DNA of 64,000 bases from a bacterium (GCA_029552985.1 JAKPDB010000107.1:15170-79169); one strand, 5' to 3'. Numbered from the stretch's first letter, positions 5,085 to 56,405 are shown. Notes: generated by a model from the letters alone, not told the origin. Numbers and translations are program-made.

Positions 5085-6020
5085 TTATTTTTGAAAGACC
5101 AGCGCAGCGCCTGAAATAATTCCAGCGTCTGTTCCAAGTCCAGCTGGTACCACCTGAACACTTGCAGATAGGACCTTCATACTTCTTTCTTGGATTGTTT
5201 TTCTTACTGTATCAAAAAGAATTTCGCCTGCCTGGGCAATGCCTCCTGCGAGAATAATTCTATCAGGATTTAACATGTTTACCATTCCAGCAAGAAATGC
5301 ACCAAGTGCAGTAGCCATTTCAATCCACACCTGTCTGGCAAGTTTGTCGTCTTTTTGATATGCTTCAGAAATCAGTTTTGGAGTAATCTCAGAAAGATTA
5401 TTCACCATGTGTGTGAGAATTGTTTTTTGCCCACGTTTAATTTTTCTTATGGCGCTACGTACAATGTAATCCCTTCCCACATACGCTTCAATACAGCCCT
5501 GCGAACCACAACCGCATTTGCGTCCTTTATAATCCACTGGCATATGACCAAGTTCTGCCGCAGAATATATTGCTCCGCGCAAAAGTTTTCCATTTATCAC
5601 AACTCCTCCGCCAAGTCCTGTACCAAGTGTAAGACATACGATTGTGCGTGTTCCTTTACCTGCTCCAAAAAGATATTCTCCCCAGGCAATGCTGTTGGCA
5701 TCATTTTCTACTGCGACCTTTTTATGGAACTTTTTTTCAAATACTTCCCTCACATTAAAGTTATGCCAGTCAGGAAGATTGGGAGATTCATATACCACGC
5801 CGTTATTGTCGACAATTCCTGGTGTCCCAATACCAATACCTTCTATATTTTCATTCCATACGTCATTGATAGCAAGAGACATTTGCTCTATCACAACATC
5901 GCGACTGCCACTTTCTGCTTTTGTTGGAAGCATCCCCTTTTTTATTAGGGTGCCTGTTTCGTTAACCAGTCCGTACTTGATATAGGTACCACCCAGGTCA
6001 ATCCCTATAGCAGTTTTCAT
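5085..6020 (-). CDS. glcK: ROK family glucokinase
   Basis: GIDLGGT N-terminus and the ROK zinc motif GHMPVDYKGRKCGCGSQGCIEAY. Confidence 0.8.
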   Translation of the reverse strand: MKTAIGIDLGGTYIKYGLVNETGTLIKKGMLPTKAESGSRDVVIEQMSLAINDVWNENIEGIGIGTPGIVDNNGVVYESPNLPDWHNFNVREVFEKKFHKKVAVENDANSIAWGEYLFGAGKGTRTIVCLTLGTGLGGGVVINGKLLRGAIYSAAELGHMPVDYKGRKCGCGSQGCIEAYVGRDYIVRSAIRKIKRGQKTILTHMVNNLSEITPKLISEAYQKDDKLARQVWIEMATALGAFLAGMVNMLNPDRIILAGGIAQAGEILFDTVRKTIQERSMKVLSASVQVVPAGLGTDAGIISGAALVFQK

Positions 6021-7354
6021 TTTTTCTTACCTTTTAGGAAACCAAATATTGATTTTTTCTCTTTCTTTTCGATTTTTTCTTCTGAAGCAGGTGCTGCAGG
6101 AGGTGTTTGTTGTTTTCTTGAAAACAAAGATCTTTTTTTGGTTTCTTCTGGTTTTACTTCTGACAGAACCTCTTTCGGCTCGACTGCTTTTTCTTCTTTC
6201 TTTCTTCCAAAGCCAAATTTTTTCTTTTTCTGTTCAACAGGCGCTTGCTGCTTTACTTCTTCAATGGCTGGAACTTCAGGAAGCGTTTCAGGATGTTCGT
6301 ATACCCCGTATTTTTTTACCAGTTCCATCACTATACAATAATCCTGGAAGCTTACAGTATTCGGGATGGAATGGTCAGAATGATAGATGTAGCCGCCATT
6401 TTTTTTGGCAACTTCAAATTTTGTTTTTATTTCCTGCTCAATTTTTGTTTTGTCAGGGTCGTTCATTAATCGTGTGTCAATGCCACCCATAAAAGCCAGT
6501 TTATCTCCATATTTTTCTTTCAGTTCGATAAGGTCCATTCCTGCTTTGACCTCAAGCGGCTGAAGACAATCAAGTCCTGCATCAATTAGCATTGGAATAA
6601 GTTCTTTTACGTTTCCACAGGAATGCAAAAGCACCTTCATGTTTTTTGAATGACAGAAGCCATATGCCATTTTGTCTGCTTGATAATGTGTTTTCAGGTA
6701 AGTATCAGGAGAAAACAGCGAGGCATTTCTGTACCCCATATCATTGAAAAAGAAAGCACCATCAAACGAAAAACCGTTTTTTATCATAAATTCCATCATA
6801 ATGAGATTTAATTCTGCAAGAGTCATAATCATTTCTTTTACCCAGCCAGGGTCTTCAATCATTGTAATTAACAGTTGCTCTGTTTTCATATAATTTTGCA
6901 GAATGTCATATCCAAATCCACCGCTATAGCATATAAACTTTCCTTCATCTTTTGCCTTATTGTAATAAGCGAGAGCACTTACCCAGTCAACTCTTCTAAA
7001 ATCAGGATTTAATCTTTTTTTGATTTCTATCCAGTCTTCTTTCGTCTTGATGGGCCAGTCAATAATTTCAGGAGTTGTGGTATAATCTCGGAAATTTTTC
7101 CTTTTTCCTCCCTGAGGCGTGGTCTGAATAATAAATTTTTCATTTTTTTCAATGACCTTCACAGGAAATCTGGGCGTACAATCAGCGCGCAAAAAGGCAA
7201 AATCCCACCCGAAATATTCGCTCACATCCGCGTCTTCAGGAAGTCCCTCGGTTTTCCATCTCTTGATTGTTGCTCCCCATGGAGAATCTTGCATCGGGAT
7301 TCTATCTGGTTCTTTATGGTTCAAAGCTAATAACACTCTTTCTCTGCTGGTCAT
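6017..7354 (-). CDS. uroporphyrinogen decarboxylase (URO-D) family / MtaA-CmuA-like methylcobamide methyltransferase with a ~100-aa Lys/Glu-rich C-terminal tail
   Basis: N-terminus RVLLALNHKEPDRIPM and overall URO-D-like TIM-barrel length. The C-terminus is low-complexity (KKKKFGFGRKKEEK...IFGFLKGKKK). Confidence 0.6.
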   Translation of the reverse strand: MTSRERVLLALNHKEPDRIPMQDSPWGATIKRWKTEGLPEDADVSEYFGWDFAFLRADCTPRFPVKVIEKNEKFIIQTTPQGGKRKNFRDYTTTPEIIDWPIKTKEDWIEIKKRLNPDFRRVDWVSALAYYNKAKDEGKFICYSGGFGYDILQNYMKTEQLLITMIEDPGWVKEMIMTLAELNLIMMEFMIKNGFSFDGAFFFNDMGYRNASLFSPDTYLKTHYQADKMAYGFCHSKNMKVLLHSCGNVKELIPMLIDAGLDCLQPLEVKAGMDLIELKEKYGDKLAFMGGIDTRLMNDPDKTKIEQEIKTKFEVAKKNGGYIYHSDHSIPNTVSFQDYCIVMELVKKYGVYEHPETLPEVPAIEEVKQQAPVEQKKKKFGFGRKKEEKAVEPKEVLSEVKPEETKKRSLFSRKQQTPPAAPASEEKIEKKEKKSIFGFLKGKKK

Positions 7355-7474
7355 ATATCCTCCTGGTTTTTAAAATCAATGTTATTGTACTTTTAATTCA
7401 ATGTTCAGTCAATCCATTTTTGCCATTGAATCAATATTGAATTACAATGATATCGAATACCCAATCAGTCAAAA

Positions 7475-15164: not shown

Positions 15165-18100
15165 TTATAACATCTGATATGTGATAATTTCGACATCCTT
15201 TGTCAGACCACAGGGCACGATTTGATATTCATCAACAAACTCATTTCCTTCTGAAATAAACTGATATGGTCCTGTCCACACAGGATATTTCTGATAAAAA
15301 TGTAAAGGGCCATGAGAATTTCTTCTATGCCCGAGAAGTTCGATTTCAAGTAAATGAGATTCTCCATCCCTGACAAACTCTGTAATATCAATAGCATTTG
15401 GAGGCCATGCGATGATTCCTACCTGTTTTCCATCAACAAGAATTCTTACTGCTACGGCCCGGTATTCAGGGATGTTCACAAAAAGTTTTTGGTTCTGTTC
15501 AATTTTCACCTGTATCTGGTGAAGGTATGTCACATTCCCTGAATAAAACAACAGCCCCTGATGTGTCCAGTCACCAATAGTTAGTTTGTCCACTTTTTCT
15601 GTAATTACAGGGTTACCATTAACCATTTTTACTCCAAAGCTTCCAAGTAAGTAAACAATTTCAAATCCTGGATGGTCAGCATTGTAATCAGTTTCAATTA
15701 TTATTTCGTTTTCACCCTTTTTGAGAATGCACGGATCAAATTTTAATAGTTCCAGAGACCTGTCAACCCACCAACCTGACTTTATGTCAGTGGGTATTGA
15801 ATAGCCATTGATAGAAATTCTGTAAAGAGACGGTTTTTCAATGGCAAGGCATGTTTCTCCTGATGGAATGTTTTCGATAATAAAAGAGTATTTCAAAGTT
15901 ACAGGAGTTGATTTAAGTTTTTTATTTTTTTCCCTCGCCCATGGTTGTACCATTGTTCCACCGCGCAGGGATATGCCAAGTTGTTTTCTGACTTCCCTGT
16001 CGAGCTTAAGGATTTCTTTTTCTTCCTGCCAGGTATCTTTCCCAATTTTATAAGCCGCTCTATCAAGTACAAAAACATTTGGTTCTGAAAGGAGTATATC
16101 CCAGAAATCTTTCTCAATTTTTGTTCTTTGAATTTCTTTCAATCTTTCTCTTGTTTCGACATTCAGCTTTATTTCCTTTTTGGGTATAATAAAAAGTTTG
16201 CTTCCAATACCAGGAAAAGATGTTTTTATGGCATAGCCATTTTCCTTTTTGATTGCCTCCACTGAGTAAAGTTTTCCTGAATCAGGATCAAGTTCAATGG
16301 CTGGATATTGCCAATCAGGAATTCCTGAAATCATCACATTATTGAATTCTATGTTTCTTTCTAATGAAAGGGTGTGTCTTTCCGAAAGGTCTTTCCATTC
16401 CATAGAGGTATTACACAAGAACAAATAATATGCGTCATTGTCTTCCCTTAAAAAATAAAGGATTTGTTTCACTTCATTTCCATTTTCATCTTTGATTGAT
16501 ACCCTTTTTGCTTTACTTTCTAATTTTTTTACTGATTCTTCAAACGAACTGGCAATTTCAAAACCATCAAAAATGTTTCCTGTAGCTGGTAATGCATCCA
16601 CATACTCAGGGGTTTTTTCAACAAATAGAACTGTTCCACCTGCTTGTCTGAATTTCTTCAGCAAATTTAATGTGGTGCTTCTTATTGTATAAAGAGGGGG
16701 TACAACGACTGCTTTATATCTGGCTTGATTCACTTGAAATACTGGATAGTCGTCTACTTTAGTCACTTTTGCCCATTGCGAAAGAATTTCTTCGTCTCCA
16801 TAATCAAAATCAATGTGAGATGAGAGGAAACTATCGCACAGTTGCTGAAACATTCTATCATATTCGATAATGTCCTTATCTCTTCCAAGCAATTTTCTCT
16901 CACTATCAAGTTCTGGCATTCTAAAAATTGCCCACATACTTTCAATAGGATGAATTACAAGAAGGTCTCTTACTTCCCTCCCTTTTGTCATCACTACGTA
17001 AATTCTGGCAAAGTAGTTCTCAACTTTGCTATACAGGTGCCACCAGGGAGATTGATAAAAAATACTTGCGGGATAATCTCTTTTTGCCTCACCAAGCATT
17101 GTGTACCAGGATAAATGCTGGCATCGTAAATTGATTCCAAGTGCAGTTTGCCAGTCACCAATGGCTTTGTGACCTGAAAACGGAAAGTCCCAGCCAGTGC
17201 ATCCATATGTTTCTGTTAATCTCCATTTTCTTCCAAACTGGTTTGCCACAGAACTTACCTGTTTTGCAGTATTGAATTCTCTTCTGTGTTCAGTGAGAAT
17301 ATCCATTCCAGGTGCCTGCATAAACTGGTAAAATCTCATGGCGCTTCCAACAACATTCGTCTGGGAACTGAGTGTTTCTTCTGAAAGAACATGTCCTGTA
17401 AAAAGAATTTTATTTTTTTCGCACCAGTCGCCAATCTGTTTTGCAAAGGCACTCACAAAAAGATGCGTGATGCAATCAAAGTAATGGTATCTTACCCTTG
17501 ATATTTTCTGATTTTCAGTGTCAAAGTAAATTTCAGGCAGGTGATTCAATATGTCATAACCATATCGTTTTTTGAAGACATCTGGTAATTTTTCTGTCCA
17601 GCTAACAATAATATTTGCTTCTGGTTGAGCTGGCCAGATATAGTGAAAGTAATGGCTACCATAATTTGGCTCGTCAGTAAAGATGCCCGGTATGACAGTT
17701 CCAAGATATTTACCGCAATTTTTCTTGTATTGCTGGTGAGTAATGTTGATAAATTCCCTGACTGCTCTGTCGTTCATGGTATCAAGATAGGTATACCCAT
17801 TATACCAGTCAGAATTTTTTTGTACTTCAACAGAGAAAACAAGAATTTTTGAGCCCGGCGTTTGCGTTTCATTCCTTTTTATTCTCTTATAACTTTTTAT
17901 TTTTCTGCCTTCGAAGTTTACAGCAAACACGGCAAGGACATTGTTAGACCACTTTACCTGTTTTACATTATCAAATATTTTCATGCAAAGATATCTCATC
18001 CTGTATTCTGGATTTTTTGTAACAAGACCTCCTGCAGCTCCTGATGGCCATCTATCTTCGTCATATAGATAAGCAAGCATCCCGAGTTTTTCTGCTTCAT

Positions 18101-18329
18101 CAGCACAGGCATTGATACATTCAAACCATTCCTTTGAAAGATATGCTGTATCAAGACCCACTCTGGAGTGCATAAAAAATCCTCCAAGACCCATTTGATA
18201 CATAATCCTGATCTGTCTTGTTAATTCTTCTGGTTCAAGTTTTCCATTCCACGCCCAGAAAGGGGCACCTCGATAAACACTACCAGGGGATTTGAATTCC
18301 TCGAGCATTTTTTCTATTTTCTTATCCAT
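15165..18329 (-). CDS. large (1054 aa) cytoplasmic glycoside-hydrolase-like protein, family uncertain
   Basis: N-terminus YRGAPFWAWNGKLEPEEL...QMGLGGFFMHSR resembles the N-termini of some bacterial GH-like proteins. No signal peptide. Confidence 0.4.
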   Translation of the reverse strand: MDKKIEKMLEEFKSPGSVYRGAPFWAWNGKLEPEELTRQIRIMYQMGLGGFFMHSRVGLDTAYLSKEWFECINACADEAEKLGMLAYLYDEDRWPSGAAGGLVTKNPEYRMRYLCMKIFDNVKQVKWSNNVLAVFAVNFEGRKIKSYKRIKRNETQTPGSKILVFSVEVQKNSDWYNGYTYLDTMNDRAVREFINITHQQYKKNCGKYLGTVIPGIFTDEPNYGSHYFHYIWPAQPEANIIVSWTEKLPDVFKKRYGYDILNHLPEIYFDTENQKISRVRYHYFDCITHLFVSAFAKQIGDWCEKNKILFTGHVLSEETLSSQTNVVGSAMRFYQFMQAPGMDILTEHRREFNTAKQVSSVANQFGRKWRLTETYGCTGWDFPFSGHKAIGDWQTALGINLRCQHLSWYTMLGEAKRDYPASIFYQSPWWHLYSKVENYFARIYVVMTKGREVRDLLVIHPIESMWAIFRMPELDSERKLLGRDKDIIEYDRMFQQLCDSFLSSHIDFDYGDEEILSQWAKVTKVDDYPVFQVNQARYKAVVVPPLYTIRSTTLNLLKKFRQAGGTVLFVEKTPEYVDALPATGNIFDGFEIASSFEESVKKLESKAKRVSIKDENGNEVKQILYFLREDNDAYYLFLCNTSMEWKDLSERHTLSLERNIEFNNVMISGIPDWQYPAIELDPDSGKLYSVEAIKKENGYAIKTSFPGIGSKLFIIPKKEIKLNVETRERLKEIQRTKIEKDFWDILLSEPNVFVLDRAAYKIGKDTWQEEKEILKLDREVRKQLGISLRGGTMVQPWAREKNKKLKSTPVTLKYSFIIENIPSGETCLAIEKPSLYRISINGYSIPTDIKSGWWVDRSLELLKFDPCILKKGENEIIIETDYNADHPGFEIVYLLGSFGVKMVNGNPVITEKVDKLTIGDWTHQGLLFYSGNVTYLHQIQVKIEQNQKLFVNIPEYRAVAVRILVDGKQVGIIAWPPNAIDITEFVRDGESHLLEIELLGHRRNSHGPLHFYQKYPVWTGPYQFISEGNEFVDEYQIVPCGLTKDVEIITYQML

Positions 18330-27244: not shown

Positions 27245-28297
27245 GTGTCTTTGTATATGTTTGAAAAATTAGCAAAACAGAAATTACAGGAAACTCCGCA
27301 AGAATATTTGAAAACGTTCGAAAGAACTAAAGATTTTCTTGTGGCAATTGATACGGATGGATGCATTGCCGACAATATGAATGCTAAACAGATATTGATA
27401 TTCCACCCGTTATACATGGAATTCTATCAGCTGTGGGAAATTGAGTCCTACTTCAGAGAGATTGCTGAATTTTATAATCTTTTTTCTGTTCACAGGGGTT
27501 GCAATAGATTTCTTGCTATCAGGTACACATTAAATGCTTTGCACAGTCGTCAGGATGTTCGAAATGAAGTAAAAAAACTAAATGTAACTCTACCAGAAAT
27601 TAAGCCAGTTGAGCAATACATTGAATTTTGTAGAAAGAATAACTACGGCATGGGAAATGTTTCTCTGGACCAATTTCTGTCAACGCGAGTTTTTGATTCT
27701 GGACTTTATAAACTATCAGGGTGGAGTCAGGCGGTTAATAAAGCACTTGAGTATATCGTTGATAAAGTTCAACCTTTTGAGAATGTGAGGGAGTGTCTTG
27801 AAATAATTTACAAGCACGCGGACATTGCTGTGATTTCTCAAACTCCTTATGAAGATTTATTTAATTACTGGAATACACATGGTCTTTTGAAATATGTAAA
27901 AGTGATTTGCGGTCAGGAGATGGGAAGCAAAACGTATCATATAGAGATGTTGAAAAAGGTTGGCAAATATTCTGATGAGGCGGTACTAATGGTTGGTGAT
28001 GCTATCGGGGATTTTGAGGCAGTTAAGAAAAATAACGGACTTTTCTATCCTGTTGTTCCTGGGAATGAAAACGATTCCTGGAAAAAATTTCCAGAGGTGT
28101 TTGAATTGTTTTTGACGGGTAAGTATCATGGGGAATTAGAGCAATACTTGATTGGTGAATTTTCAAAAAAATTACCTGATAGGCCACCGTGGCAAACACA
28201 GGGTTATGATCATACCGCTTCTTACAGAAAAAATCAGGAAATCAGGAAATCTCTTTATAAACAATTTAATCCTGACGGGAGGTTACTCATTTTATGA
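27245..28297 (+). CDS. HAD superfamily hydrolase (putative phosphatase) with a large cap domain
   Basis: Motif I VAIDTDGCI and motif IV MVGDAIGDFEA. The GTG start is 14 nt after GGAGG; an alternative ATG is at 27257. Confidence 0.6.
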   Translation: MSLYMFEKLAKQKLQETPQEYLKTFERTKDFLVAIDTDGCIADNMNAKQILIFHPLYMEFYQLWEIESYFREIAEFYNLFSVHRGCNRFLAIRYTLNALHSRQDVRNEVKKLNVTLPEIKPVEQYIEFCRKNNYGMGNVSLDQFLSTRVFDSGLYKLSGWSQAVNKALEYIVDKVQPFENVRECLEIIYKHADIAVISQTPYEDLFNYWNTHGLLKYVKVICGQEMGSKTYHIEMLKKVGKYSDEAVLMVGDAIGDFEAVKKNNGLFYPVVPGNENDSWKKFPEVFELFLTGKYHGELEQYLIGEFSKKLPDRPPWQTQGYDHTASYRKNQEIRKSLYKQFNPDGRLLIL

Positions 28298-29580
28298 AAA
28301 TAGGAACAGGCAATAAGAATGAGGTTCTGTCTGAACAGAAATTTGGTTCTATTTTACAGAATATTGTGATATCTCTTGGTCTGGAGAAAAAGGAAAAGGT
28401 TCTGGTTATTATACCTGATAGTACTCGTTCAGGTCCAACAGGAGATGTTTTTAGAGTCATAGTTGATACTCTTTACCACAGGGTTAAAAAGCTGGATTTT
28501 ATGATCGCACTTGGAACTCATCCAGTAATGACAGTGGAAAACATTGAAAAATTGCTTGGAATTAACTGTCAGAAGTTCCAGGAGAAATATCCGCAGACGC
28601 AGATATTTCAACACTGCTGGGATGATGAAAAAACGATAGTGGAAATTGGTACCATTACAGCCAGCGAAATTTCGAGAATTTCTCGTGGGCTTTTAAACGA
28701 GGATATCCCTGTGACAATTAACAGAACCATACTTGATTATGACCACATTATTCTCGCAGGACCTGTTTTTCCTCACGAGGTTGTTGGGTTTTCTGGTGGA
28801 TATAAGTATCTTTTTCCTGGAATTTCAGGTCCTCATTTCCTTCACAAATTCCACTGGCTCGGCGCTTTAATTACAAATCCTAAGATCAATGGCGTGAAAG
28901 ATACTCCTGTCAGAGAAGCAATAAACAAAGCAGTTTCTTTTATAAATAAGCCAATCACACAGATATGTTATGTGGTAAAAGAAAAAAAGGTCTATGGAAT
29001 ATTCGCAGGAGACAATGAGGCATGGTCTGCAGCAGCAGATCTATCTGCGCAATTGAATATTGAATATGTCGACAGAAGTTATAACGAGGTTCTTTCAATG
29101 GCGCCAGTGATGTATGATGACATATGGACTGCCGGTAAATGTATGTATAAACTTGAACCGATTGTTTCTGATGGTGGAAATTTAATTATCTATGCTCCAC
29201 ATATCACAGAGGTTTCTTATACACACGGAAAGTACATCAGACAGGTTGGATATCATACGCGTGACTATTTTCTTAAACAATGGGAAAGATTTAAGAATTT
29301 TCCAGGCGGTATCCTTGCCCATTCCACTCATGTCAAGGGTATCGGCACTTTTCTTGATGGAATTGAAACTCCAAGAATCAACGTTTATCTTGCAACTGGC
29401 ATAAGTAAACAGGTGTGCCAGCAAATTAACCTCGGCTATATCAATCCAGATGAGATCAACATTGATGATTTTCGAAAGAAACAGGATACTTTTGTTGTGG
29501 AAAATGCAGGAGAGATACTATTCAGATTGAAAAGTGGCCAAGTTCCAGACATTGATAAACTTTATGAGAGGCGAAAATGA
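28294..29580 (+). CDS. LarA family (lactate racemase-like) nickel-pincer-nucleotide-dependent hydroxyacid racemase/epimerase homolog
   Basis: N-terminal DUF2088-like motifs IIPDSTRSGP and ALGTHP. The FPHEVVGFSGGYKYLFPG segment matches the LarA H..GxSGGxK cofactor-tethering region. 428 aa. Start overlaps the HAD stop (ATGA). Confidence 0.65.
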   Translation: MKIGTGNKNEVLSEQKFGSILQNIVISLGLEKKEKVLVIIPDSTRSGPTGDVFRVIVDTLYHRVKKLDFMIALGTHPVMTVENIEKLLGINCQKFQEKYPQTQIFQHCWDDEKTIVEIGTITASEISRISRGLLNEDIPVTINRTILDYDHIILAGPVFPHEVVGFSGGYKYLFPGISGPHFLHKFHWLGALITNPKINGVKDTPVREAINKAVSFINKPITQICYVVKEKKVYGIFAGDNEAWSAAADLSAQLNIEYVDRSYNEVLSMAPVMYDDIWTAGKCMYKLEPIVSDGGNLIIYAPHITEVSYTHGKYIRQVGYHTRDYFLKQWERFKNFPGGILAHSTHVKGIGTFLDGIETPRINVYLATGISKQVCQQINLGYINPDEINIDDFRKKQDTFVVENAGEILFRLKSGQVPDIDKLYERRK

Positions 29581-30947
29581 GTTATTTATTTAAAAAACAA
29601 TATCCAGATTTTAGACTTTTTGAAAGTTCCTTGAGAAAGCATGGTGACGATTATTACTTTGTTGCTGAAAAAAATGGAAGGATGTATCTGGTTATTGGAA
29701 ACAATTCCTTTCGGTTTATTGAACGAGAGGAATCACCTGAAATATTAAGAAAAACGTTTTCATTTCTCACCCCGGTCTGTGCAGGTATGAAAAATTCCTT
29801 TGGCTTTGGCGACCGGACAGGTTTTGCAACCCCAGGGCATATCCGTGCAGTAGAGGGAAGTGGGCTTTTCCCAATTTTTGCGCAGCAGTCAGCAAGGGAA
29901 CTCGAAAGAACAGGAAGGACATTCAAACAGGTTCTTGACGATGTAATTTTTTGGTGTTTTGCCTTTGGCTGGATAAATGGTTTTGGAGCGGATGCTGACC
30001 ATGCGAAAAATTTTGATGTTTTACAGGAAGCAATTTCTGCTGGCTACACATTTTTCACCATTGACCCCTCTGATAAAATCAGAAACCCATCAGACATTGC
30101 ATCGTGCAAAAAGCAAAGTATCGACAAATACATTAAGGAATATTCTGGTAAGAATTTCGCATGTAATGGATTTTCTTTTGTTTTCACTGAAGAAATGGTT
30201 TCTGAACTTGCTATTACATATGGGCAAGCTATTGATTTCATTGAGGAGTGTTATTTATTTATTTCTGACAGGAAAAAGAATTTTGATTTTGAGGTTTCTG
30301 TTGATGAAACAAAAGTCCCGACAACTGTTTATGCCCATGTATTTATTGTTATGGAGCTTCGCAGGAGAAATATTGAATTCAATAGCCTTGCTTTGCGTTT
30401 TTCCGGAAGATTTGAAAAGGGGATAGATTATATTGGAGATATTAATGAATTTGCCAGAGAACTGGAAATTCATAATAAAATACGGAATCATCTTGGACCA
30501 TATAAGATTTCACTCCATTCTGGAAGCGACAAATTCAGTATATATGGTGCGTTCAAAAAAACACTTGGAGACATGTTTCATGTCAAGACATCTGGGACTT
30601 CGTGGATTCAGGCGATGAAAACCATTGCAGCAATTGACAGGGAATTTTTTATGAAGTGTCTGGAAGTTGCGCTGAAGGACTTTGAAAAAAATTCAAGGTC
30701 CTATGAAATTTCCACAGATATTTCAAGGATAAATTTAGAAAAAATAAGGAACGAAAATCTTGATGAGATATTTTCCGATAATCATATCAGGCAGTTGATT
30801 CATATCAGTTATGGAAGTATTATTGGAAACGCTCCTGAGAGTCAGGAAATGAAACAACATTACAACATCCTGATTGAAAAAAATTGTGAGCTTTATTTTC
30901 GTTTTATTGAAGAACATTTGAAGAAACATGTTCAACTGCTTACATGA
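29577..30947 (+). CDS. GatZ/KbaZ-like TIM-barrel protein (candidate sugar-acid/sugar-phosphate epimerase, UxaE/tagatose-6P epimerase-like)
   Basis: Local resemblance to E. coli GatZ segments (GADADHAKN..AISAGYTFFTIDPS vs GGDHLGPN..YVAAGFSKIHLDAS; LHSGSDKF..HVKTSGTSW vs EAHSTDY..ILKVGPAL). Start overlaps the LarA stop (ATGA). Confidence 0.45.
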   Translation: MSYLFKKQYPDFRLFESSLRKHGDDYYFVAEKNGRMYLVIGNNSFRFIEREESPEILRKTFSFLTPVCAGMKNSFGFGDRTGFATPGHIRAVEGSGLFPIFAQQSARELERTGRTFKQVLDDVIFWCFAFGWINGFGADADHAKNFDVLQEAISAGYTFFTIDPSDKIRNPSDIASCKKQSIDKYIKEYSGKNFACNGFSFVFTEEMVSELAITYGQAIDFIEECYLFISDRKKNFDFEVSVDETKVPTTVYAHVFIVMELRRRNIEFNSLALRFSGRFEKGIDYIGDINEFARELEIHNKIRNHLGPYKISLHSGSDKFSIYGAFKKTLGDMFHVKTSGTSWIQAMKTIAAIDREFFMKCLEVALKDFEKNSRSYEISTDISRINLEKIRNENLDEIFSDNHIRQLIHISYGSIIGNAPESQEMKQHYNILIEKNCELYFRFIEEHLKKHVQLLT

Positions 30948-39825: not shown

Positions 39826-40770
39826 ATGAAGCGATTGGTAAGCATTTTCATTAAAGTATTCGTAAGCGGGTTTTTTATATTCCTTATTACCAAGAAGATT
39901 GATATCCCGCAGATGATTGAAATTTTGCAAAATGTAGATGTTCCATTTTTCATAGTCATCATTCTGATTAATTACGTGGTGACTTTTTTTATGGCTCTCA
40001 GATGGTACTTTATTCTGGACGAATTCAGAAAAAAAATGCCATTTGCTAAAGTGTGGCAATTGTCTCTTATTGGAATGTATTTTAATATCATTTTACCGAC
40101 TGGAGCAGGCGGAGATGCCGTCAAAATTTTTTATATTACCAGAAATCAGGAGGAAAAATTGAAACTTGGTACATCTGTAATTTTTGATCGATTTATTGGT
40201 TCGTCATCTATCATTTTTATGGCTATACTCAGTTTATTATATTATCAGGGACACTTGCCTCAAAAATTGAAAATTACCCTTGTATTTCTTTTCATTCTTG
40301 CGCTGTCTGTCTGGCTTTTGATCGTCTGGGATAAACTTGCCATTTTGACGGGGAAACTTTTTCCTCGTAGAATCAGAGAAAAGTTAAGGGCATTCTATAA
40401 TCATCTCAGGGATTATGGGATTAATCGAAGGGTTTTTACCAATGCCTTTCTGGCAAGCATGGCTGTTCAGGTGATTTCGATTTATGTTCAGTATTTATGT
40501 GTAATACTCATTTCTCATGCGGATAAAGCATTTGTTCCTTTCCCTTTGTTTTTTATATTCATTCCCATTATATGGCTTTCAGCAATGATTCCTTCCCTCG
40601 GCGGGCTTGGAATAAGGGAATATGGTTATCTTTTTTTCTTTAAACCTTTTATCGGTCAGGAAGCAGCAATTGCAATGGCACTGATTAATCTGTTTTTAAT
40701 TTTTTCCCAGGCATTTCTCGGGGGATTGATTTTTTTATTTCTTCGTCAAGGTCTTCGAGACCGCAAATAA
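39826..40770 (+). CDS. flippase-like / lysylphosphatidylglycerol-synthase TM-region (UPF0104) membrane protein
   Basis: Polytopic membrane protein with a GGDAVK motif in the first loop. Confidence 0.5.
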   Translation: MKRLVSIFIKVFVSGFFIFLITKKIDIPQMIEILQNVDVPFFIVIILINYVVTFFMALRWYFILDEFRKKMPFAKVWQLSLIGMYFNIILPTGAGGDAVKIFYITRNQEEKLKLGTSVIFDRFIGSSSIIFMAILSLLYYQGHLPQKLKITLVFLFILALSVWLLIVWDKLAILTGKLFPRRIREKLRAFYNHLRDYGINRRVFTNAFLASMAVQVISIYVQYLCVILISHADKAFVPFPLFFIFIPIIWLSAMIPSLGGLGIREYGYLFFFKPFIGQEAAIAMALINLFLIFSQAFLGGLIFLFLRQGLRDRK

Positions 40771-41703
40771 ATGTGTTTTTCAGCAATTGTATTACCTCGT
40801 CAGGACTTGGAAAATCTGTAAAAGCCCTTGCTGCCTTTGCTGTTGCGGATGCAACTGCAAACCTTAACGATTCTTTGAAATTGCCTGTTTGAGAAAAAGA
40901 CAAAACGAATCCAGCAAGAAGGACATCACCACACCCGACAGAACCAGGATTATTAACGACTGGACCGTTTGCATAAAAAAAGCCATCCTTTGAGAATCCA
41001 ATAGCTCCTTTGTCTCCCATTGTGACGATAATAAATGGAATCCCTGATTTTAGCAGTTTTTCCCCTGTCTGACATAGATGTTCAAAATTGAGAATCCGTT
41101 CCGACATAAGTCTTTCAAGTTCCCAGATATTGGGCTTTATTAAATCAGGTTTTTCGCCAACGCCATAACGAAGAAATTTTCCATCTGTATCAAGGCCAAT
41201 CAACGTATTTTTTCCTCTTCGGCGGATTTCTTTTATTAATCTGGCGTATAAATCTTCAGGCATTCCAGGAGGTAAACTACCAGAAATGAGAATCCATTTT
41301 GCAGGATTAAAATCAATACTGAATATAAATTTAAGTATTTCCTTCAGGGACTGTTTGTTTATGGTAGGACCAGGTTCATTGAATCGTAAGACTGTACCGT
41401 TTTCAAAAAAAAATTGTAATTTTCTCTGGTTTCTCCCTCTATATCAATTATGAAATCAGTGGAAATGCCTGATTTTTTTAAAAGATTTTTGAAACGGGTT
41501 CCGTTAAAACCGCCTGCAATGCCAACTGATTGTACATCTACATTAAACTTGCTCAGAAATTTTGCAATATTAATCGCCTTACCGCCCGCAGATACAATCT
41601 TTTTGCTGATTCGGATAATATCGTCTGTTTTGAATTCTTTGGCAAAACAGTTAACGTCCAGACACGGATTCAAGCCAATTGTAATAAAACTATTTTGCGG
41701 CAT
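40685..41703 (-). pseudogene. PfkB-family sugar kinase (1-phosphofructokinase / tagatose-6-P kinase / KDG-IolC-like), frame disrupted at a T9 homopolymer
   Basis: The N-terminal ORF (41703-41359) and C-terminal ORF (41263-40685) are both PfkB-like. Reading through the 9-nt A/T run at 41405-41413 with one extra base gives a continuous ...NYNFFFENGTVLRFNEPGPTINKQSLKEILKF...ISGSLPPGMPEDLY PfkB sequence. Confidence 0.7.
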
Positions 41704-41711
41704 GGAACTTT

Positions 41712-41879
41712 CTATGCTGATTGAGTTCGATATTTTTTGATTTTTTTGCGACGTCTCAACTGGCTGGGTTTTTCATAGAACTCTCGTTTCTTGATTTCTC
41801 TGATAATGCCTTCCTTTTCAACCTCGCGTTTGAATTGTTTGAAAATTTTTTCAAAGTGTTCGTGGTGTTGTTTTTCCAC
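41712..41879 (-). CDS. rpsU: 30S ribosomal protein S21 (GTG start; absent from the ORF track)
   Basis: Translation ...[43 protein letters not shown] carries the S21 hallmark R(R/K)EFYEKPS. GGGAGGGGG lies upstream. Confidence 0.7.
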
Positions 41880-41900
41880 AGAGATACAGTCACCCCCTCC

Positions 41901-42065
41901 CTAATACCTGTCTATTTCAAACAGGCGGGCACCGCAATGCCTGCATTTCTTTTCGTCAGGATAATATCCATCAACGATGAAACAAACCCTGCAGCGGATG
42001 TTAATTCTTTCCAGCGGTGGTCGTATTGTTTTTACTTCTGGTTTTGATTTTTCCTTTTCACTCAT
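41901..42065 (-). CDS. small zinc-ribbon protein (54 aa, CxxC...CxxC)
   Basis: MSEKEKSKPEVKTIRPPLERINIRCRVCFIVDGYYPDEKKCRHCGARLFEIDRY, immediately upstream of rpsU. Below the ORF-track size cutoff. Confidence 0.35.
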   Translation of the reverse strand: MSEKEKSKPEVKTIRPPLERINIRCRVCFIVDGYYPDEKKCRHCGARLFEIDRY

Positions 42066-42075
42066 TTGTTATCCT

Positions 42076-42894
42076 TTAAAGCTTAATTATAATATTTTCA
42101 AAAAGATCTGTCAAGAAAGGCTCTGCTGCTGCAGCTGTCGCCAGAATTTCCTCGAATGTTGTCACCTTTAGAGCATCAGGCAGACACATATCGCTAATTA
42201 CAGATGCTCCAAAAACTTTTAAACCTGCATGCACTGCAGCAATAACCTCAATAACCGTGGACATACAAACCATATCAGCGCCGATCGCTCTTAAAAATCT
42301 GTATTCTGCTCTTGTTTCAAGATTTGGCCCGGTTAATCCTACGATGACTCCCTTTTTGACTGGAATTTTTTTCTCAAGGGCAATGTTTTCGGCAAGCTCA
42401 ATGATTCCAGCATCATACACATTTGACATATCAGGGAACCTTACCCCGATTTCTTCATAATTGGGTCCTATTAACGGATTATGTCCGGTAAGATTAATAT
42501 GGTCAGTGATAATTACAATGTTTCCAGGTTTAAACATAGGGTTCAAACCGCCCGCAGCATTAGATTCAAGAAGAATTTTCACTCCAAGAAATTTTAGAAC
42601 TCTGATGGGAAGAGCAATTTCCTGTGCGGTATAGCCCTCATAAAGGTGAAACCTACCTTGGAACGCAACGATGCTTTTATCTCCAATTGTTCCAAAAATG
42701 AGGTTGCCTGCATGACCTTCGACTGTAGAAACAGGAAAATTGGGAATAGAATCATAAGAAACAACTTTCTCAATATTGATTCTATCTGTAAATTTACCAA
42801 GCCCTGTTCCAAGAATAATTCCTATTTCTGGTTTTGTCCTAGTAATTGTTTTCAGAAATGCAGCTGTTTCTTTAATTCTGGATAGTTCATCCAT
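42076..42894 (-). CDS. purine nucleoside phosphorylase (PNP/MTAP family)
   Basis: GIILGTGLG, HAGNLIFG and ESNAAGGLNP motifs. Confidence 0.8.
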   Translation of the reverse strand: MDELSRIKETAAFLKTITRTKPEIGIILGTGLGKFTDRINIEKVVSYDSIPNFPVSTVEGHAGNLIFGTIGDKSIVAFQGRFHLYEGYTAQEIALPIRVLKFLGVKILLESNAAGGLNPMFKPGNIVIITDHINLTGHNPLIGPNYEEIGVRFPDMSNVYDAGIIELAENIALEKKIPVKKGVIVGLTGPNLETRAEYRFLRAIGADMVCMSTVIEVIAAVHAGLKVFGASVISDMCLPDALKVTTFEEILATAAAAEPFLTDLFENIIIKL

Positions 42895-51546: not shown

Positions 51547-52668
51547 TTATATTAGATTTTGTTTTTTCAATGTCAGAAACATGCGAATTCTACCAACAGC
51601 AAATCCACCGAATCCGAAAACCAGAAATGGCACCTGAACAATCACACCTGCCTTTGGTATTGCAGTGAAAAGAACAAAAACTCCGGTTCCAACAAATATG
51701 GCAAGAATCAGTTTCAATTTGCTTTCTTTCAGCTTGAAAAGAATAATTCTTCCCAGTGCAATGCAAGTGAATCCACGACACAAATATAGAAGAGATATAT
51801 AAAATGTTAATAATATCAATCCGATCGGAGCACCAATCACAGTGACCATCAAGAGTATCATGATTAATGGAGTAATCAACAGTAGTAGGATACCACTGAA
51901 AAAAATCCAGATGGGTTTTTTTTCTATAATTTCTATTGTTTCCTGAAGGACCCTTGGCGTAATGATCGTCATTAAAAGAAAAGGGAAACACAAACTCAAA
52001 AACGAATATAATTTTCTGAATTTAGACGAAAAAAAGATCTGTGCCTTTTGAGGAATAGGTGGTTCATATTTGAAGTTGCAATGTTTAAGCACATTTATAG
52101 GAAGAGAAGGTTTCGTCTGACTCTGTACAAAAAGGTCTTTGATCTCAATATTTTTTGTAAAAATAATATCTCTGGTTTTTATGTGAACAGTTTTATAATG
52201 TCCACCCATCTGAATATCTCTTGACCATATTTTGGTACTATTTTTGCATCTTACGCTGTCAGCCATCAGTATTTCAGGTGAAACGATATTAACATTGCCA
52301 TCAATTTCACAATTTTCTACTATTAAATTTCTTGCCATTACCTTCAGATTTCCCTTAATTGTTCCAGAAATTCTCACGGTGTCACCTGCGATATAAACGT
52401 CTTTGTTTGATATTCCATTAAAGTTAATAGTAATGCCGAATAAAATCACATCTTCATATGAAGTGCCTGAAAATTCCAAATTTTTTCCAATAGCAATCAT
52501 GTTGTTCATAAAACTGCGTTGCATTTTTAAATCCCTACCAGACAAAAAATCTTCGAGCTCCTGGTTTGTGGCCATATCCATCATTGCATGAACCTGAAAC
52601 CCGAACAAGAAAACCAGAATCAATAGAAGTTTTTTCATATTTTTTTTAGCATTGGTATTTCGTCGCAT
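51547..52668 (-). CDS. membrane protein with signal peptide, bactofilin-like beta-helical repeat region and C-terminal polytopic TM domain
   Basis: Repeating short beta-strand segments ([31 protein letters not shown]) followed by ~5 TM helices. Confidence 0.4.
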
Positions 52669-53700: not shown

Positions 53701-54014
53701 TTTTCGATCTCCTTTATGTATCGAAGAATTTTTTTCAACAATGCTGATGAATTCTGTTTATTCTTTTTCTGCGTGTTATGGATATCATGGAATTTTTTTT
53801 TAACACCTACGATTTTGTATCCATTCTGGTATAGCAATTTTTGAATTTGTTTGATTCTTTCAACATCCTTTGCAGAATATATTCTTCTTCCAGCAGGATC
53901 CCTCTGAATTTTCAAAAAAGAAAACTGTTTCTCCCAGTATCTTAAAATATGCGTGCCGACTCCTGTAATTTCAGAAACCTCACTGATACTGTAATAACGG
54001 TTATGCTCACTCAT
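53688..54014 (-). CDS. MerR family transcriptional regulator
   Basis: N-terminal HTH YSISEVSEITGVGTHILRYWE. Confidence 0.7.
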   Translation of the reverse strand: MSEHNRYYSISEVSEITGVGTHILRYWEKQFSFLKIQRDPAGRRIYSAKDVERIKQIQKLLYQNGYKIVGVKKKFHDIHNTQKKNKQNSSALLKKILRYIKEIEKCLP

Positions 54015-54984
54015 TTTTCAATTCTCTTGTCATAAGTTTGTCAATCTCGTCGGGTGGTTTTGCATTTTCATGTACAATTCGATACACTGCTGCGGCAATA
54101 GGAATATCTATGTTGTACGTGTTAGCCATTTTCACAATGGCTTTTGAAGCAGATATTCCCTCAACCACCATTCTGGTTTGAGCAAGAAATTGCTCTTTTT
54201 TAGCCATTGCTATTGCCTGACCAAATCTGTGATTTCTGCTGCTGGGGCTGAATGAGGTTGTGATCAGGTCGCCAATTCCGGCAAGTCCCAAAAATGTTTT
54301 ATCTTTTGCGCCAAAAATTTTTCCAAATCTTTTCATTTCTTCTACGCTTCTTGTCAAATAAGATGCCTTTGCGTTATCACCCAGTTTGAGTCCATCAATG
54401 ATTCCCGAGCCAATTGCGATCACATTTTTATAGCCACCACATATTTCAACACCACACACGTCATCGCTTGTATATAATCTCAGTACTTTTGAGGAAAACA
54501 TATTCTGTATTTCTCTCGCCATATGTGTATCGTCAGAAGCCACTACCGCAGCAGTCGGTTTTCCTGCGGCAACCTCAGAAGCAATTGTGGGTCCTGAAAT
54601 CACTGCAAATTTACACCTGCCTATTTCATTATACAATATTTCTGACATTCTCATTCCTGTCTCTGGTTCAAGTCCTTTAGTGGCGATCAAAATTTTCTGC
54701 CTTTTATAAAAAGGTTTTAGATTTCTGAGTGTTTCTCTGAAATACTGAGAAGGTACAACGATTATAAGCAAACTGTTATTACAGACAGTTTGAATATCAC
54801 TTGTAATTGTTACATCATCGGGTATTTTGAACCCAGGAAGAAACTCAATATTTTCTTTCGTATTTGAAAGCACAGAAGCATATTCAGGGAACTTTTCCCA
54901 CAGTGTTACCTCAAATTTGCCAGAAAGTATTATTGATAGGGCAGTACCCCAGCCACCTGCACCGACAATGCCTATTTTTTCCAT
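54007..54984 (-). CDS. gpsA: NAD(P)H-dependent glycerol-3-phosphate dehydrogenase
   Basis: IGIVGAGGWGTAL N-terminus; the plsY-gpsA arrangement. Confidence 0.9.
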   Translation of the reverse strand: MEKIGIVGAGGWGTALSIILSGKFEVTLWEKFPEYASVLSNTKENIEFLPGFKIPDDVTITSDIQTVCNNSLLIIVVPSQYFRETLRNLKPFYKRQKILIATKGLEPETGMRMSEILYNEIGRCKFAVISGPTIASEVAAGKPTAAVVASDDTHMAREIQNMFSSKVLRLYTSDDVCGVEICGGYKNVIAIGSGIIDGLKLGDNAKASYLTRSVEEMKRFGKIFGAKDKTFLGLAGIGDLITTSFSPSSRNHRFGQAIAMAKKEQFLAQTRMVVEGISASKAIVKMANTYNIDIPIAAAVYRIVHENAKPPDEIDKLMTRELKNE

Positions 54985-55583: not shown

Positions 55584-55599
55584 GGTTCATATGCCTATA

Positions 55600-56229
55600 T
55601 TACTGAAGCCCGAGCAGTTCTTTGGCTTTGTCAACAGCAGATCCTGCATCAGGCGCGTATCCATCAGCACCAATTTCATCTGCATATGCTTGTGTTACAG
55701 GAGCTCCTCCTATGATGACTTTTACCTTATCTCTGATTCCTTCTGCTTTTAATTTTTCAATAACATCCTTCATTGCTGGCATTGTGGTTGTCAGAAGGGC
55801 TGAAAGCCCAATCAACTGAGCGCCATTTTTGGCCGCCTCTACAAACTTTTCTTCAGGAACATCAATGCCAAGGTCAATAACTTCAAAGCCTGCTCCTTTC
55901 CACATCATGGAGACGAGATTTTTTCCAATGTCATGGAGGTCTCCTTTTACTGTTCCTATAGCCACTTTCCCCTGAGGTTTTATGCCTGCCTTGGCAATTT
56001 CTGGCTGCAGTATCGCCATTGCCTGGTTCATGGCTCTGGCAGCGATCAGGACTTCAGGAACATAAAATTCATTATTTTTGAATTTTACTCCAACAACATT
56101 CATTCCAGCGATTAACCCTTCATTCAAAATTTTTTCAACGCTGATGTTTTCAGCCAGAGCCTTAGAAACAAGCTCTGTGGCTTTCTTTGCATCTCCTCTA
56201 ATTATTGCTTGCTTAATTTCCTCTAACAT
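55600..56229 (-). CDS. corrinoid (cobalamin-binding) protein of methyltransferase systems (MtaC/MtbC-like)
   Basis: N-terminal B12-binding_2 helical cap plus a Rossmann B12-binding domain with DxHxxG (GDLHDIGKN). Confidence 0.75.
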   Translation of the reverse strand: MLEEIKQAIIRGDAKKATELVSKALAENISVEKILNEGLIAGMNVVGVKFKNNEFYVPEVLIAARAMNQAMAILQPEIAKAGIKPQGKVAIGTVKGDLHDIGKNLVSMMWKGAGFEVIDLGIDVPEEKFVEAAKNGAQLIGLSALLTTTMPAMKDVIEKLKAEGIRDKVKVIIGGAPVTQAYADEIGADGYAPDAGSAVDKAKELLGLQ

Positions 56230-56331: not shown

Positions 56332-56405
56332 AGGCGGTTAGCTCAGTCGGCAAGAGCGCTTCCCTTACAAGGAAGAGGTCGTGGGTTCGATTCCCTCACC
56401 GCCTA
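56332..56405 (+). tRNA. tRNA-Val (anticodon TAC); CCA not encoded
   Basis: Cloverleaf folded by hand. Acceptor AGGCGGT/ACCGCCT, D-stem GCTC/GAGC, anticodon stem CTTCC/GGAAG with loop CTTACAA, T-loop TTCGATT. One U-U mismatch in the T-stem. Confidence 0.8.

Follow-up and report, generated by a model that had tools for sequence, protein, structure and literature searches.

The enzyme and its locus

The 64,000-nucleotide stretch of bacterial DNA analysed here (GCA_029552985.1, JAKPDB010000107.1:15170-79169; hereafter the window) carries a complete open reading frame (ORF) for a URO-D-fold methyltransferase-like protein (hereafter the enzyme), whose catalytic core is followed by a disordered C-terminal tail, and, 48.2 kb away from it, the gene of a stand-alone corrinoid protein (CP), which is the only corrinoid protein in the window (Table 1). 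The enzyme represents an uncharacterised subfamily with an altered MetE-type candidate metal site, one lineage of which has acquired a MinD/FtsY-like tail, and in this it extends the known systems. A protein identical to the product of the ORF is recorded in three metagenome contigs, and both strings by which a preliminary description of this DNA had characterised its C-terminal extension, KKKKFGFGRKKEEK and IFGFLKGKKK, are present in it.

Table 1. Features of the enzyme gene, its tail, its surroundings and the CP gene; positions are counted from the first letter of the window
Feature	Position	Strand	Remarks
Complete ORF, URO-D-fold methyltransferase-like core and disordered tail	6017..7354	(-)	445 aa; ORF listing
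Catalytic core, residues 1-352, (β/α)8 URO-D/MtaA/MetE-like barrel	6299..7354	(-)	Pfam, AlphaFold2, Foldseek
Candidate metal/catalytic segment	6371..6625	(-)	H244 6623-6625, C246 6617-6619, E268 6551-6553
Candidate metal/catalytic residues, distal block	H325 6380-6382, D327 6374-6376, H328 6371-6373	(-)	
C-terminal tail, residues 353-445, Lys/Glu/Pro-rich, disordered	6020..6298	(-)	present in one clade only
Tail motif 1, KKKKFGFGRKK, residues 376-386	6197..6229	(-)	basic-hydrophobic peak 1.48, highest in protein
Tail motif 2, KKRSLFSRK, residues 406-414	6113..6139	(-)	peak 0.97
Tail motif 3, KKSIFGFLKGKKK, residues 433-445, extreme C-terminus	6020..6058	(-)	peak 1.43
Sigma-70-like promoter match, TTGACT-17-TACAAT	7384..7412	(-)	~30 nt upstream of the enzyme start codon; 10/12 positions; consensus match only
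ROK-family sugar kinase	5085..6020	(-)	start overlaps the enzyme-gene stop (ATGA)
Stand-alone CP, B12-binding cap and Rossmann domain, probable methyl carrier	55600..56229	(-)	Pfam, NCBIfam

Core fold and family placement

Both marks of the URO-D superfamily, a match to the family hidden Markov model and a (β/α)8 barrel, are found in the core of the enzyme. The Pfam model URO-D (PF01208) matches residues 156-349 (E=1.9e-15, 57.1 bits against a cut-off of 23.9), and in an AlphaFold2 model built on 51 sequences the block-mean predicted local distance difference test score (pLDDT) is at least 90 over most of the core. Foldseek placed the Methanosarcina mazei MtaA structures first (4ay8, E=2e-13, TM-score 0.72, 15% identity), followed by HemE and then by MetE, with a probability of 1.00 to the MtaA and HemE structures and a weaker similarity to MetE (TM-score 0.4, E ~1e-5), and phmmer gave E=0.023 for MtaA and E=0.42 for the HemE structure 3cyv. 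The nearest NCBIfam models are those of the MtaA/CmuA families, which reach 37-43 bits against cut-offs of 235-244, with TIGR01463 and NF040654 likewise scoring below their cut-offs (36.9 bits versus 235.4 and 25.9 versus 400, respectively), and there is a weak match to the short archaeal-type methionine synthase PRK00957.

The preliminary description had called the enzyme MtaA-like, which does not hold in the family sense, given the ~15% identity, the NCBIfam scores far under their cut-offs and the absence of the distal Cys ligand. Membership of the MtaA/Mlp group, which for Mlp requires an identity above 25% with one of the characterised coenzyme M (CoM) methyltransferases (SCMTs) (PMC10418091), was rejected on the identity to 4ay7/4ay8 and on the same scores.

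Several homologues have been named "uroporphyrinogen decarboxylase" by JGI, and the fold does match HemE structures, so that a genuine HemE of haem or sirohaem biosynthesis has to be considered. This explanation is, however, practically out of the question, since the PF01208 match is partial, no HemE model appears among the NCBIfam matches, and the match to 3cyv is insignificant by phmmer. The N-terminal HemE signature P-x-W-x-M-R-Q-A-G-R (PROSITE PS00906, P-[LIVM]-W-[LIVMF]-M-R-Q-A-G-R) is found in none of the 120 homologues; a conserved HxC/Glu/His site of the metal-binding type is present, HemE being no metalloenzyme, and none of the gene neighbourhoods examined contains tetrapyrrole or haem genes. 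The enzyme is thus almost certainly a protein of the URO-D superfamily other than HemE, and in this respect the earlier proposal stands.

The databases hold more than 3,200 homologues of the enzyme, annotated nearly always as "uroporphyrinogen decarboxylase family" or "hypothetical", and relatives are encoded in at least 560 species-representative genomes, bacterial and, in some cases, archaeal, at least one archaeal contig being recognised by the adjoining gene for the TATA-box-binding protein. The genome labels include Ratteibacteria, Omnitrophota, Aerophobetes, Latescibacterota, Brocadiia, Chloroflexota, Verrucomicrobiota, Clostridia and Desantisbacteria as well as the cultured Fervidibacter sacchari. 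The identity of the core to tail-less orthologues across many phyla, at 55-67%, is unusually high, and members of the subfamily are usually encoded alone. Nothing on this protein was found in the literature on Ratteibacteria and Fervidibacter. The subfamily is an uncharacterised, widely distributed branch of the URO-D superfamily. In F. sacchari PD1 (L088, NZ_CP130454.1 354456-375538) a second URO-D-type gene, of 386 aa, always precedes the orthologue, as it also does in the related metagenome contigs L124, L131, L135, L138-L140, L163 and L164.

A candidate metal site

The residues that make up the candidate site (H244, C246, E268, H325, D327 and H328) are all invariant in alignment A1 and, with the exception of C246, which is at least 90% conserved, also in alignment A2. 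The sequence H244-[S/C]-C246-G occurs in 119 of the 120 homologues, and the same count applies to the block GGY[IV]YH[ST]DHS[IV]P, which includes H325-S-D327-H328; the HSCGN of the enzyme aligns with the LHICGN of MtaA. In the AlphaFold2 model the conserved residues follow successive strands of the barrel, each at the end of its strand or shortly past it: H244 ends a strand and is followed two residues on by C246, E268 comes after the next strand, exactly 22 residues past C246, and H325-H328 follow the last strand. In the MetE of Thermotoga maritima the zinc is held by His618 at the end of β5, Cys620 in the following loop, Glu642 (+22) at the end of β6 and Cys704 in the loop after β8, and the same ligand set has been reported for MT2-A (PMC539065).

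Three of the four MetE-type ligands are therefore kept in place, and the distal Cys has given way to the invariant His325/Asp327/His328. This pattern strongly suggests that the enzyme binds a metal, probably zinc, but falls short of proof, since the fourth ligand, a Cys, is replaced by His/Asp. A URO-D paralogue with 29% identity to the enzyme (L064 3870-5054; L101 4529-5638) keeps HxDH and has DCDGN in place of HSCGN, so that the role of the HxDH block is perhaps independent of the HxC pair.

The corrinoid protein and the neighbourhoods of orthologues

The CP has 209 residues and shows the cap and the domain expected of the cognate corrinoid protein of a three-component system (PF02607 and PF02310) together with the DxHxxG motif, in the form GDLHDIG. 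It scores 211 bits, just under the cut-off of 215, against TIGR02370 ("methyltransferase cognate corrinoid protein"). It is a genuine corrinoid protein of the MtbC/MtgC/MetH-cap type, much as the preliminary description had it. Identity is 72-79% across matches labelled Omnitrophica, Ratteibacteria and Armatimonadota, and in Armatimonadota the CP adjoins RACo. The CP gene lies 17 nt (55583-55600) upstream of plsY, which is followed by gpsA, both genes of phospholipid synthesis (span 54007-56229 (-)), and the order CP, plsY, gpsA, MerR, purN, GNAT, DUF8173-like, argG is conserved in contigs labelled Omnitrophica/Ratteibacteria (also L090, L094 and L099). A gene for a B12 carrier protein is here co-transcribed with lipid-synthesis genes. 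A URO-D gene that follows argG in the CP-syntenic contig L094 was set aside as a different paralogue (23% identity) and gives no evidence of linkage.

Partner genes were sought in three ways, by Pfam on 35 ORFs of the window, in precomputed Pfam annotations covering both window ends and 7 kb beyond, and by tblastn with RACo, DUF1638, a PF02574 protein and four modules of Escherichia coli MetH. None of these searches revealed in the window a methyltransferase of the MttB/MtaB/MtbB type, in agreement with what had been noted before, nor a RACo activase, a DUF1638, a PF00809 or a PF02574 gene; neither the 64-kb window nor its flanks contain a second methyltransferase or a RamA/RACo activase, and of the split methionine synthase set the window has the CP only. 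In the lineage in question adjacency is uninformative, because the enzyme and CP genes each sit in a conserved, housekeeping-looking operon of their own.

It is in other lineages that the two genes meet. Among 160 loci sampled from reference genomes and metagenomes, which were probed by tblastn and whose informative domains were confirmed by Pfam, a CP orthologue adjoins the enzyme orthologue in 11 (L064, L078, L101, L121, L128, L132, L155, L161, L168, L172 and L174), often as a tight operon of CP followed by enzyme, and in a twelfth (L167) the enzyme is followed by RACo alone. The CP of the window is 49-65% identical to the CPs encoded beside enzyme orthologues. In L161, L168, L172 and L174, of which L172 is archaeal, the CP gene precedes the enzyme gene with gaps of 6-41 nt. 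Larger clusters are found in L064 (Latescibacterota), where CP, RACo, DUF1638, the URO-D paralogue, a nitroreductase, the enzyme and a PF02574 homocysteine methyltransferase are encoded together, in L078 (Chloroflexi), where PF02574 and CP on one strand diverge from the enzyme, which DUF1638 follows, and in L101, where an MTHFR-C-like protein, a PF00809 pterin-binding methyltransferase, CP, RACo, DUF1638 and the URO-D paralogue are found with the enzyme further along. In L155 (1-11000) a fragment of a CP gene is followed by seven genes of the URO-D superfamily, the enzyme included, and L050 (1-16000) has four or five such paralogues and a fusion of an aldo-keto reductase with a 4Fe-4S domain; both arrays look like multi-substrate demethylase islands. 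In the Chloroflexi metagenome-assembled genome, a glycyl-radical enzyme (PFL-like with Gly_radical) and its radical-SAM activase (L078 8294-12174) also adjoin the cluster.

These neighbourhoods are good evidence that the enzyme subfamily works with this type of CP, and since orthologues of both adjoin in 11 of the 160 loci, the enzyme and the CP 48 kb apart are very probably functional partners, as had been suspected; the enzyme is accordingly likely to be a corrinoid-protein-dependent methyltransferase. The preliminary description would have regarded membership of the CP in a methionine-synthase-like module as speaking against the partnership. The CP subfamily does occur with PF02574, DUF1638 and RACo, but this context qualifies the partnership rather than refuting it, because a URO-D-like protein is present in the same clusters.

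Substrate side or acceptor side

In the demethylase systems of bacteria the UroD-superfamily protein is the substrate-specific methyltransferase I (MT1, MTI), and the acceptor-side methyltransferase II (MT2, MTII) is a pterin-binding protein (PMC13222342; PMC10418091); in the split methionine synthase a PF02574 acceptor module occurs with a CP, a RamA-like activase and DUF1638 (PMC5764234). The clusters described above already hold an acceptor module (PF00809 in L101; PF02574 in L064 and L078), and URO-D-type proteins are the sole donor-side candidates in them, for which reason we somewhat favour MT1 over MT2 for the enzyme. The arrays of URO-D paralogues around one CP (L050, L155) count towards the same assignment, and if the enzyme is the MT1, the absence of a recognisable MT1 from the window is accounted for. 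The methylcobamide:acceptor role of the preliminary description thus probably has the direction of transfer reversed.

The enzyme could, alternatively, act on the acceptor side and pass the methyl group of methyl-CP to a zinc-activated thiol, homocysteine or another small one, in the manner of MtaA/MT2-A or of single-domain "core" MetE-type enzymes. The H-x-C...E(+22) arrangement is that of the zinc site with which MetE and MT2-A activate thiols, MtaA is the best match in both sequence and fold, PRK00957 is matched weakly, and fmt and aspartokinase, which share the operon, have a loose connection to methionine. We nevertheless hold this role to be doubtful, since a dedicated PF02574 homocysteine methyltransferase already adjoins the enzyme orthologue in L064 and L078 and a pterin-binding MT2 is already encoded in L101, no donor-side enzyme besides URO-D-type proteins is visible in any of these three loci, and His/Asp stand in place of the distal Cys ligand.

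Sequence and origin of the tail

The tail, EHPETLPEVPAIEEVKQQAPVEQKKKKFGFGRKKEEKAVEPKEVLSEVKPEETKKRSLFSRKQQTPPAAPASEEKIEKKEKKSIFGFLKGKKK, has 93 residues, among them 25 Lys+Arg, 17 Asp+Glu, 5 Phe and 9 Pro, with a net charge of +8, and for most of residues 365-445 the AlphaFold2 model has a pLDDT below 50 and no secondary structure. It had been described as unusual for the family, which a survey of orthologues bears out: C-terminal extensions of 34-311 aa are present in 62 of the 120 closest homologues, and the 60 tailed homologues with complete cores form one clade in a neighbour-joining tree rooted with paralogues, P0029, with a stub of 14 aa, being the only non-tailed member inside it. Downstream of the enzyme gene lie ROK, fmt and aspartokinase, in what looks like a housekeeping operon, and the genes URO-D-like, ROK and fmt keep this order in all of the tail-bearing clade and only there. 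The single clade indicates that the tail was gained once, in the Ratteibacteria-type lineage, which has this synteny, and the entire clade, in which core identity falls to 59%, has kept it.

The sequence and the length of the spacers (the tails have 23% Lys, 16% Glu and 13% Pro) drift freely, and what persists is a pair of Phe/Leu followed by Gly (or Ser/Ala) with runs of Lys/Arg on both sides, as in KKKFGFGRKK, KRGLFGKK, KKFSLFGKKK, KKGFKLPFGKKK, KKGIKIFGRKKG and KKSIFGFLKGKKK. The tails carry one to three motifs of the type KK-x-Φ-F-G-KKK separated by polyampholyte spacers, the first 25-41 residues past the core and successive ones ~25-35 residues apart, with the shortest tails (34-47 aa) consisting of one spacer and one terminal motif. 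In 50 of the 62 tails a motif falls among the final 12 residues, compared to 0.63 expected from composition-preserving shuffles (at most 4 in 500), and the total is 100 compared to 6.2 expected from the shuffled tails. No tandem duplication of the motifs was detected at the DNA level. Among 908 ORFs in 664 kb of tail-bearing genomes, the motif was seen outside this family in a single, evidently spurious ORF (in L043), and it was not found elsewhere in the window.

A few homologues have aberrant tails. In P0022 and P0032 (547 and 532 aa) the tails of 170-190 aa have the first motif, then the Pro-rich repeat KPQVEPPVKPEKTTPEIPIAPPQ twice, and end in an acidic Glu/Lys run without a terminal motif. 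In P0055 (663 aa, on an ENA contig of 3.9 kb) a motif-bearing tail runs into a predicted transmembrane segment, IAISIAAIIIIIASWTLMLT, and a domain of ~190 aa without a Pfam match; it may be a genuine membrane-anchored fusion or an artefact of assembly or frameshift and was not used as evidence.

Possible functions of the tail

From its sequence, the tail is tentatively read as a peripheral membrane tether. On an approximate basic-hydrophobic scale, which takes the interfacial values of Wimley and White and treats Lys/Arg as favourable, nothing else in the protein peaks as high as the three tail motifs (Table 1), and the motifs of MinD and FtsY, translated from the genome of E. coli K-12 for comparison, give 1.03-1.06 (1.03 for the membrane-targeting sequence (MTS) of MinD, KKGFLKRLFGG), motifs 1 and 3 being higher. 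A terminal motif of basic residues and Phe/Leu conserved amid drifting flanks is the mark of an MTS of the MinD/FtsY type and is found in the tail. The helical hydrophobic moment is 0.31 for motif 3 and 0.27 for MinD, with lower values for motifs 1 and 2. AlphaFold2 predicts no helix in the motifs, which is what peptides of this kind should show when not bound to a membrane. One MinD MTS alone is too weak a binder, and stable binding is obtained with dimers or tandem MTS repeats (PMC8155659); CdmB, a relative of the enzyme, is a dimer (PMC13222342). Two or three copies of the motif on an enzyme with dimeric relatives would fit this pattern of weak single and stable multiple binding. As for what membrane placement would serve, proximity to an importer or a substrate that partitions into the membrane are guesses.

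Other functions have been weighed against the membrane tether. The motifs could be short linear docking motifs for a protein partner, such as the CP, an activase, a transporter or another hub, with the spacers as a fly-casting tether, and conserved motifs in fast-evolving disorder, regular spacing and terminal placement are all typical of docking motifs, while the dispersal of the partner genes in this lineage would make a recruiting device plausible. This is rather unlikely: the acidity of the CP is mild (net charge -3.4), no candidate partner was found, and the motifs do not form a defined peptide but are degenerate patches of basic and aromatic character (FGFG, LFGK, IFGF, LPFGK) with a close resemblance to proven lipid-binding sequences. 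Binding to another polyanion (RNA, DNA, the ribosome or polyphosphate), or the formation of condensates through aromatic stickers, is suggested by the net charge, the lysine clusters and the character of a blocky polyampholyte with Phe "stickers", but is less probable still: 17 of the 93 residues of the tail in the window are acidic (17% Asp+Glu over all tails), unlike in histone-like or RNA-binding tails, conservation centres on the Phe/Leu-Gly core and the flanking Lys rather than on overall charge, and the gene context lacks nucleic-acid-related genes. Of the two associations that the preliminary description had suggested for the tail, the one with the membrane is better supported than the one with nucleic acid. 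Least probable, and largely refuted, is a neutral low-complexity tail whose terminal Lys motif is constrained only at the DNA level by the overlapping ROK start and ribosome-binding site. The stop of the enzyme gene does overlap the ROK start, and the AAAGG of the terminal Lys-Gly codons lies ~10 nt upstream of that start, overlapping the ribosome-binding region; this overlap cannot explain the conservation, because the motif is also kept in L030, L035, L037 and L045, in which the ROK start is 56-251 nt further downstream, and recurs internally, far from any start codon. Its conserved elements moreover include Phe/Leu-Gly and not Lys codons alone, its enrichment over shuffles is 80-fold, and the tail is retained clade-wide.

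Three further kinds of motif were set aside: the β-clamp-binding motif (QL[SD]LF), as the tail motifs have no Gln; the encapsulin cargo peptide (Leu-x-Ile-Gly-Ser-Leu), whose pattern is absent from the tail motifs; and the microcompartment encapsulation peptide, for whose 18-residue helix the motifs are too short and contain Gly. No shell or encapsulin genes turned up in the annotated neighbourhoods, although no formal test of these readings was made.

Proposed mechanism

Taken together, a corrinoid-dependent, MT1-like enzyme with a membrane-tethering tail is considered the best overall explanation, with a probability of roughly one in two. The fold, the conserved residues, the neighbourhoods, the conservation of the tail and the motif statistics were computed, and from them we infer the binding of zinc, the dependence on a corrinoid in this organism, the MT1 direction and the binding to the membrane. 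In the proposed model, the metal-dependent (probably zinc-dependent) enzyme would exchange a methyl group with the CP encoded 48 kb away, acting on the demethylase side as a substrate-specific methyl-donor:cob(I)amide methyltransferase. An acceptor module of the folate or homocysteine type, encoded elsewhere in the genome, would be next to take over the methyl group, with an activase of the RACo type keeping the cobalt reduced. The tail of the Ratteibacteria type would keep the enzyme on the cytoplasmic side of the membrane through multivalent, individually weak lipid-binding motifs, the Lys residues contacting anionic head-groups and Phe/Leu inserting into the bilayer, as in the C-terminal MTS of MinD and the two A-domain motifs of FtsY.

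It has to be noted that a number of observations weigh against this explanation. None of ~41 tail-bearing loci has a CP, an activase or an acceptor module within 8-10 kb, any corrinoid-system neighbour is present in just 12 of the 160 sampled loci, and the enzyme gene of the window itself sits in the housekeeping operon with ROK, fmt and aspartokinase. The classical function of a site like that of MetE and MT2-A is to activate a thiol acceptor, and this speaks for MT2 rather than MT1; a methyl-thioether as the donor would reconcile the MT1 role with such a site. The distal Cys of the MetE/MT2-A site is absent, the paralogue with HxDH but without HxC leaves the metal site unproven, and some UroD-type MTIs, such as CdmB, have no zinc (PMC13222342). 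With respect to the tail, the scale on which its motifs rank so high is an approximate one, and the helical hydrophobic moments of motifs 1 and 2 are low (0.09 and 0.15, versus 0.27 for MinD); such limited helical amphipathicity points to an unstructured cluster of basic and aromatic residues and away from a helix like that of MinD. The confinement of the motif to this family in 664 kb means, in addition, that it is not a demonstrated general targeting signal.

Relation to known systems

MtaA, MtbA and MT2-A (4ay7/4ay8) and their bacterial Mlp relatives (Kountz & Balskus) share with the enzyme the (β/α)8 fold of URO-D, the H-x-C-G-N element with a Glu one strand later, and the reliance on a separate corrinoid protein and a RamA/RACo activase. 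Besides its low identity, the enzyme differs from them in having H-S-D-H in place of the distal Cys ligand, in that its organisms are without CoM, and in the opposite half-reaction to which the cluster logic points. We know of no MtaA-type or Mlp protein with such a tail. The UroD-superfamily MTIs OdmB, VdmB, MtvB, MtoB, CdmB and CmuA, with which the enzyme has been compared through their descriptions rather than their sequences, are likewise URO-D-fold proteins encoded with a CP, a pterin-binding MTII and a RACo-type activase; several paralogues around one CP are also seen among them, and some contain zinc. Compared to these, the subfamily of the enzyme is unusually conserved and usually encoded alone, and the tail is unique to it.

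The C-terminal barrel of MetE and the single-domain archaeal-type methionine synthases have identical ligands at three of the four metal positions, with Cys as the fourth instead of His/Asp; the similarity of the fold is weaker, and MetE needs no corrinoid protein. The three-part split methionine synthase of Phaeobacter inhibens (PF02574, PF00809, the CP "MtbC", a RamA-like protein and DUF1638; Price et al. 2018) has the same type of CP, and its accessories recur around the enzyme orthologue, namely DUF1638 in L064, L078 and L132, PF02574 in L064 and L078, and RACo in L064. A URO-D-type protein is, however, not part of the described system, and the window has only its CP, transcribed with plsY-gpsA.

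The short terminal motifs of MinD and FtsY, KKGFLKRLFGG and KKRGFFSWLGFG, combine Lys/Arg, Phe/Leu and Gly in the same way as KKGFKLPFGKK-COOH of P0047 and KKSIFGFLKGKKK, are unstructured in solution and need multivalency. FtsY begins with MAKEKKRGFFSWLGFGQKE, which is followed by ~185 acidic disordered residues and then by KEGFFARLKRSLLKTKE and GFISLFRGKK, and so, like the tail, has a long stretch of charged and disordered sequence between its motifs, of which there are two. The tail motifs differ in sitting on a metabolic enzyme, in up to three copies ~30 residues apart, and in that two of the three in the window have little helical amphipathicity; the membrane binding of the tail is a prediction from its sequence.

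Other genes in the window

The ROK kinase is probably a co-transcribed neighbour and not a functional part of the enzyme system. No riboswitch or other RNA element was found upstream of the enzyme or CP gene, or in L064, L078, L088 and L092; the sole Rfam match in the window is a tRNA-Val (anticodon TAC) at 56332-56405 (+), between the CP gene and dnaK. Catabolic genes of the sugar-acid/pectin type lie at 15165-18329 (-) and 28294-30947 (+) and include a 1054-aa relative of GH106-like α-L-rhamnosidases, a LarA-N-like protein and the tagaturonate epimerase UxaE, which suggests a lifestyle of degrading plant polysaccharides; that O-methylated sugars might be one conceivable methyl donor for the enzyme is pure speculation. 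An ORF of 114 aa at 41359-41703 (-), in the region 40770-42076, matches the first ~100 of the 302 positions of the PfkB carbohydrate-kinase model and is probably a truncated or frameshifted gene. Two conserved ORFs had no Pfam match in our scan, one of 373 aa at 51547-52668 (-), for which the precomputed data give a weak match to DUF8173, and one of 95 aa at 59600-59887 (+).

Biological implications

Corrinoid methyltransferase systems set which methylated compounds anaerobes can use, and in uncultured phyla the substrate-specific enzymes are mostly unknown. Nothing in the present analysis overturns established understanding; what the neighbourhoods provide is a testable role and a defined partner protein for a widespread subfamily, and the cultured F. 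sacchari would open its tail-less form to genetics or biochemistry. A more far-reaching reading, which we consider improbable as it stands, is that the subfamily is an unrecognised methyl-entry module that loads a common methyl donor onto a CP of the MetH type and so feeds methionine (via PF02574) or the folate pool (via PF00809) in many uncultured anaerobic phyla and some archaea, with the Ratteibacteria-type enzyme held at the membrane by a MinD/FtsY-like tether. If that were true, demethylation would perhaps be coupled to substrate uptake or be directed at a membrane-soluble or lipid substrate, and it is in this connection that the co-transcription of the CP gene with plsY-gpsA deserves mention. 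The tail, for its part, makes a neat case from nature in which a soluble enzyme of metabolism has gained a multivalent tether of the MinD/FtsY kind, and if it does bind the membrane, such motifs would be used beyond cell division and protein targeting and would amount to a compact, portable tag of ~12 residues.

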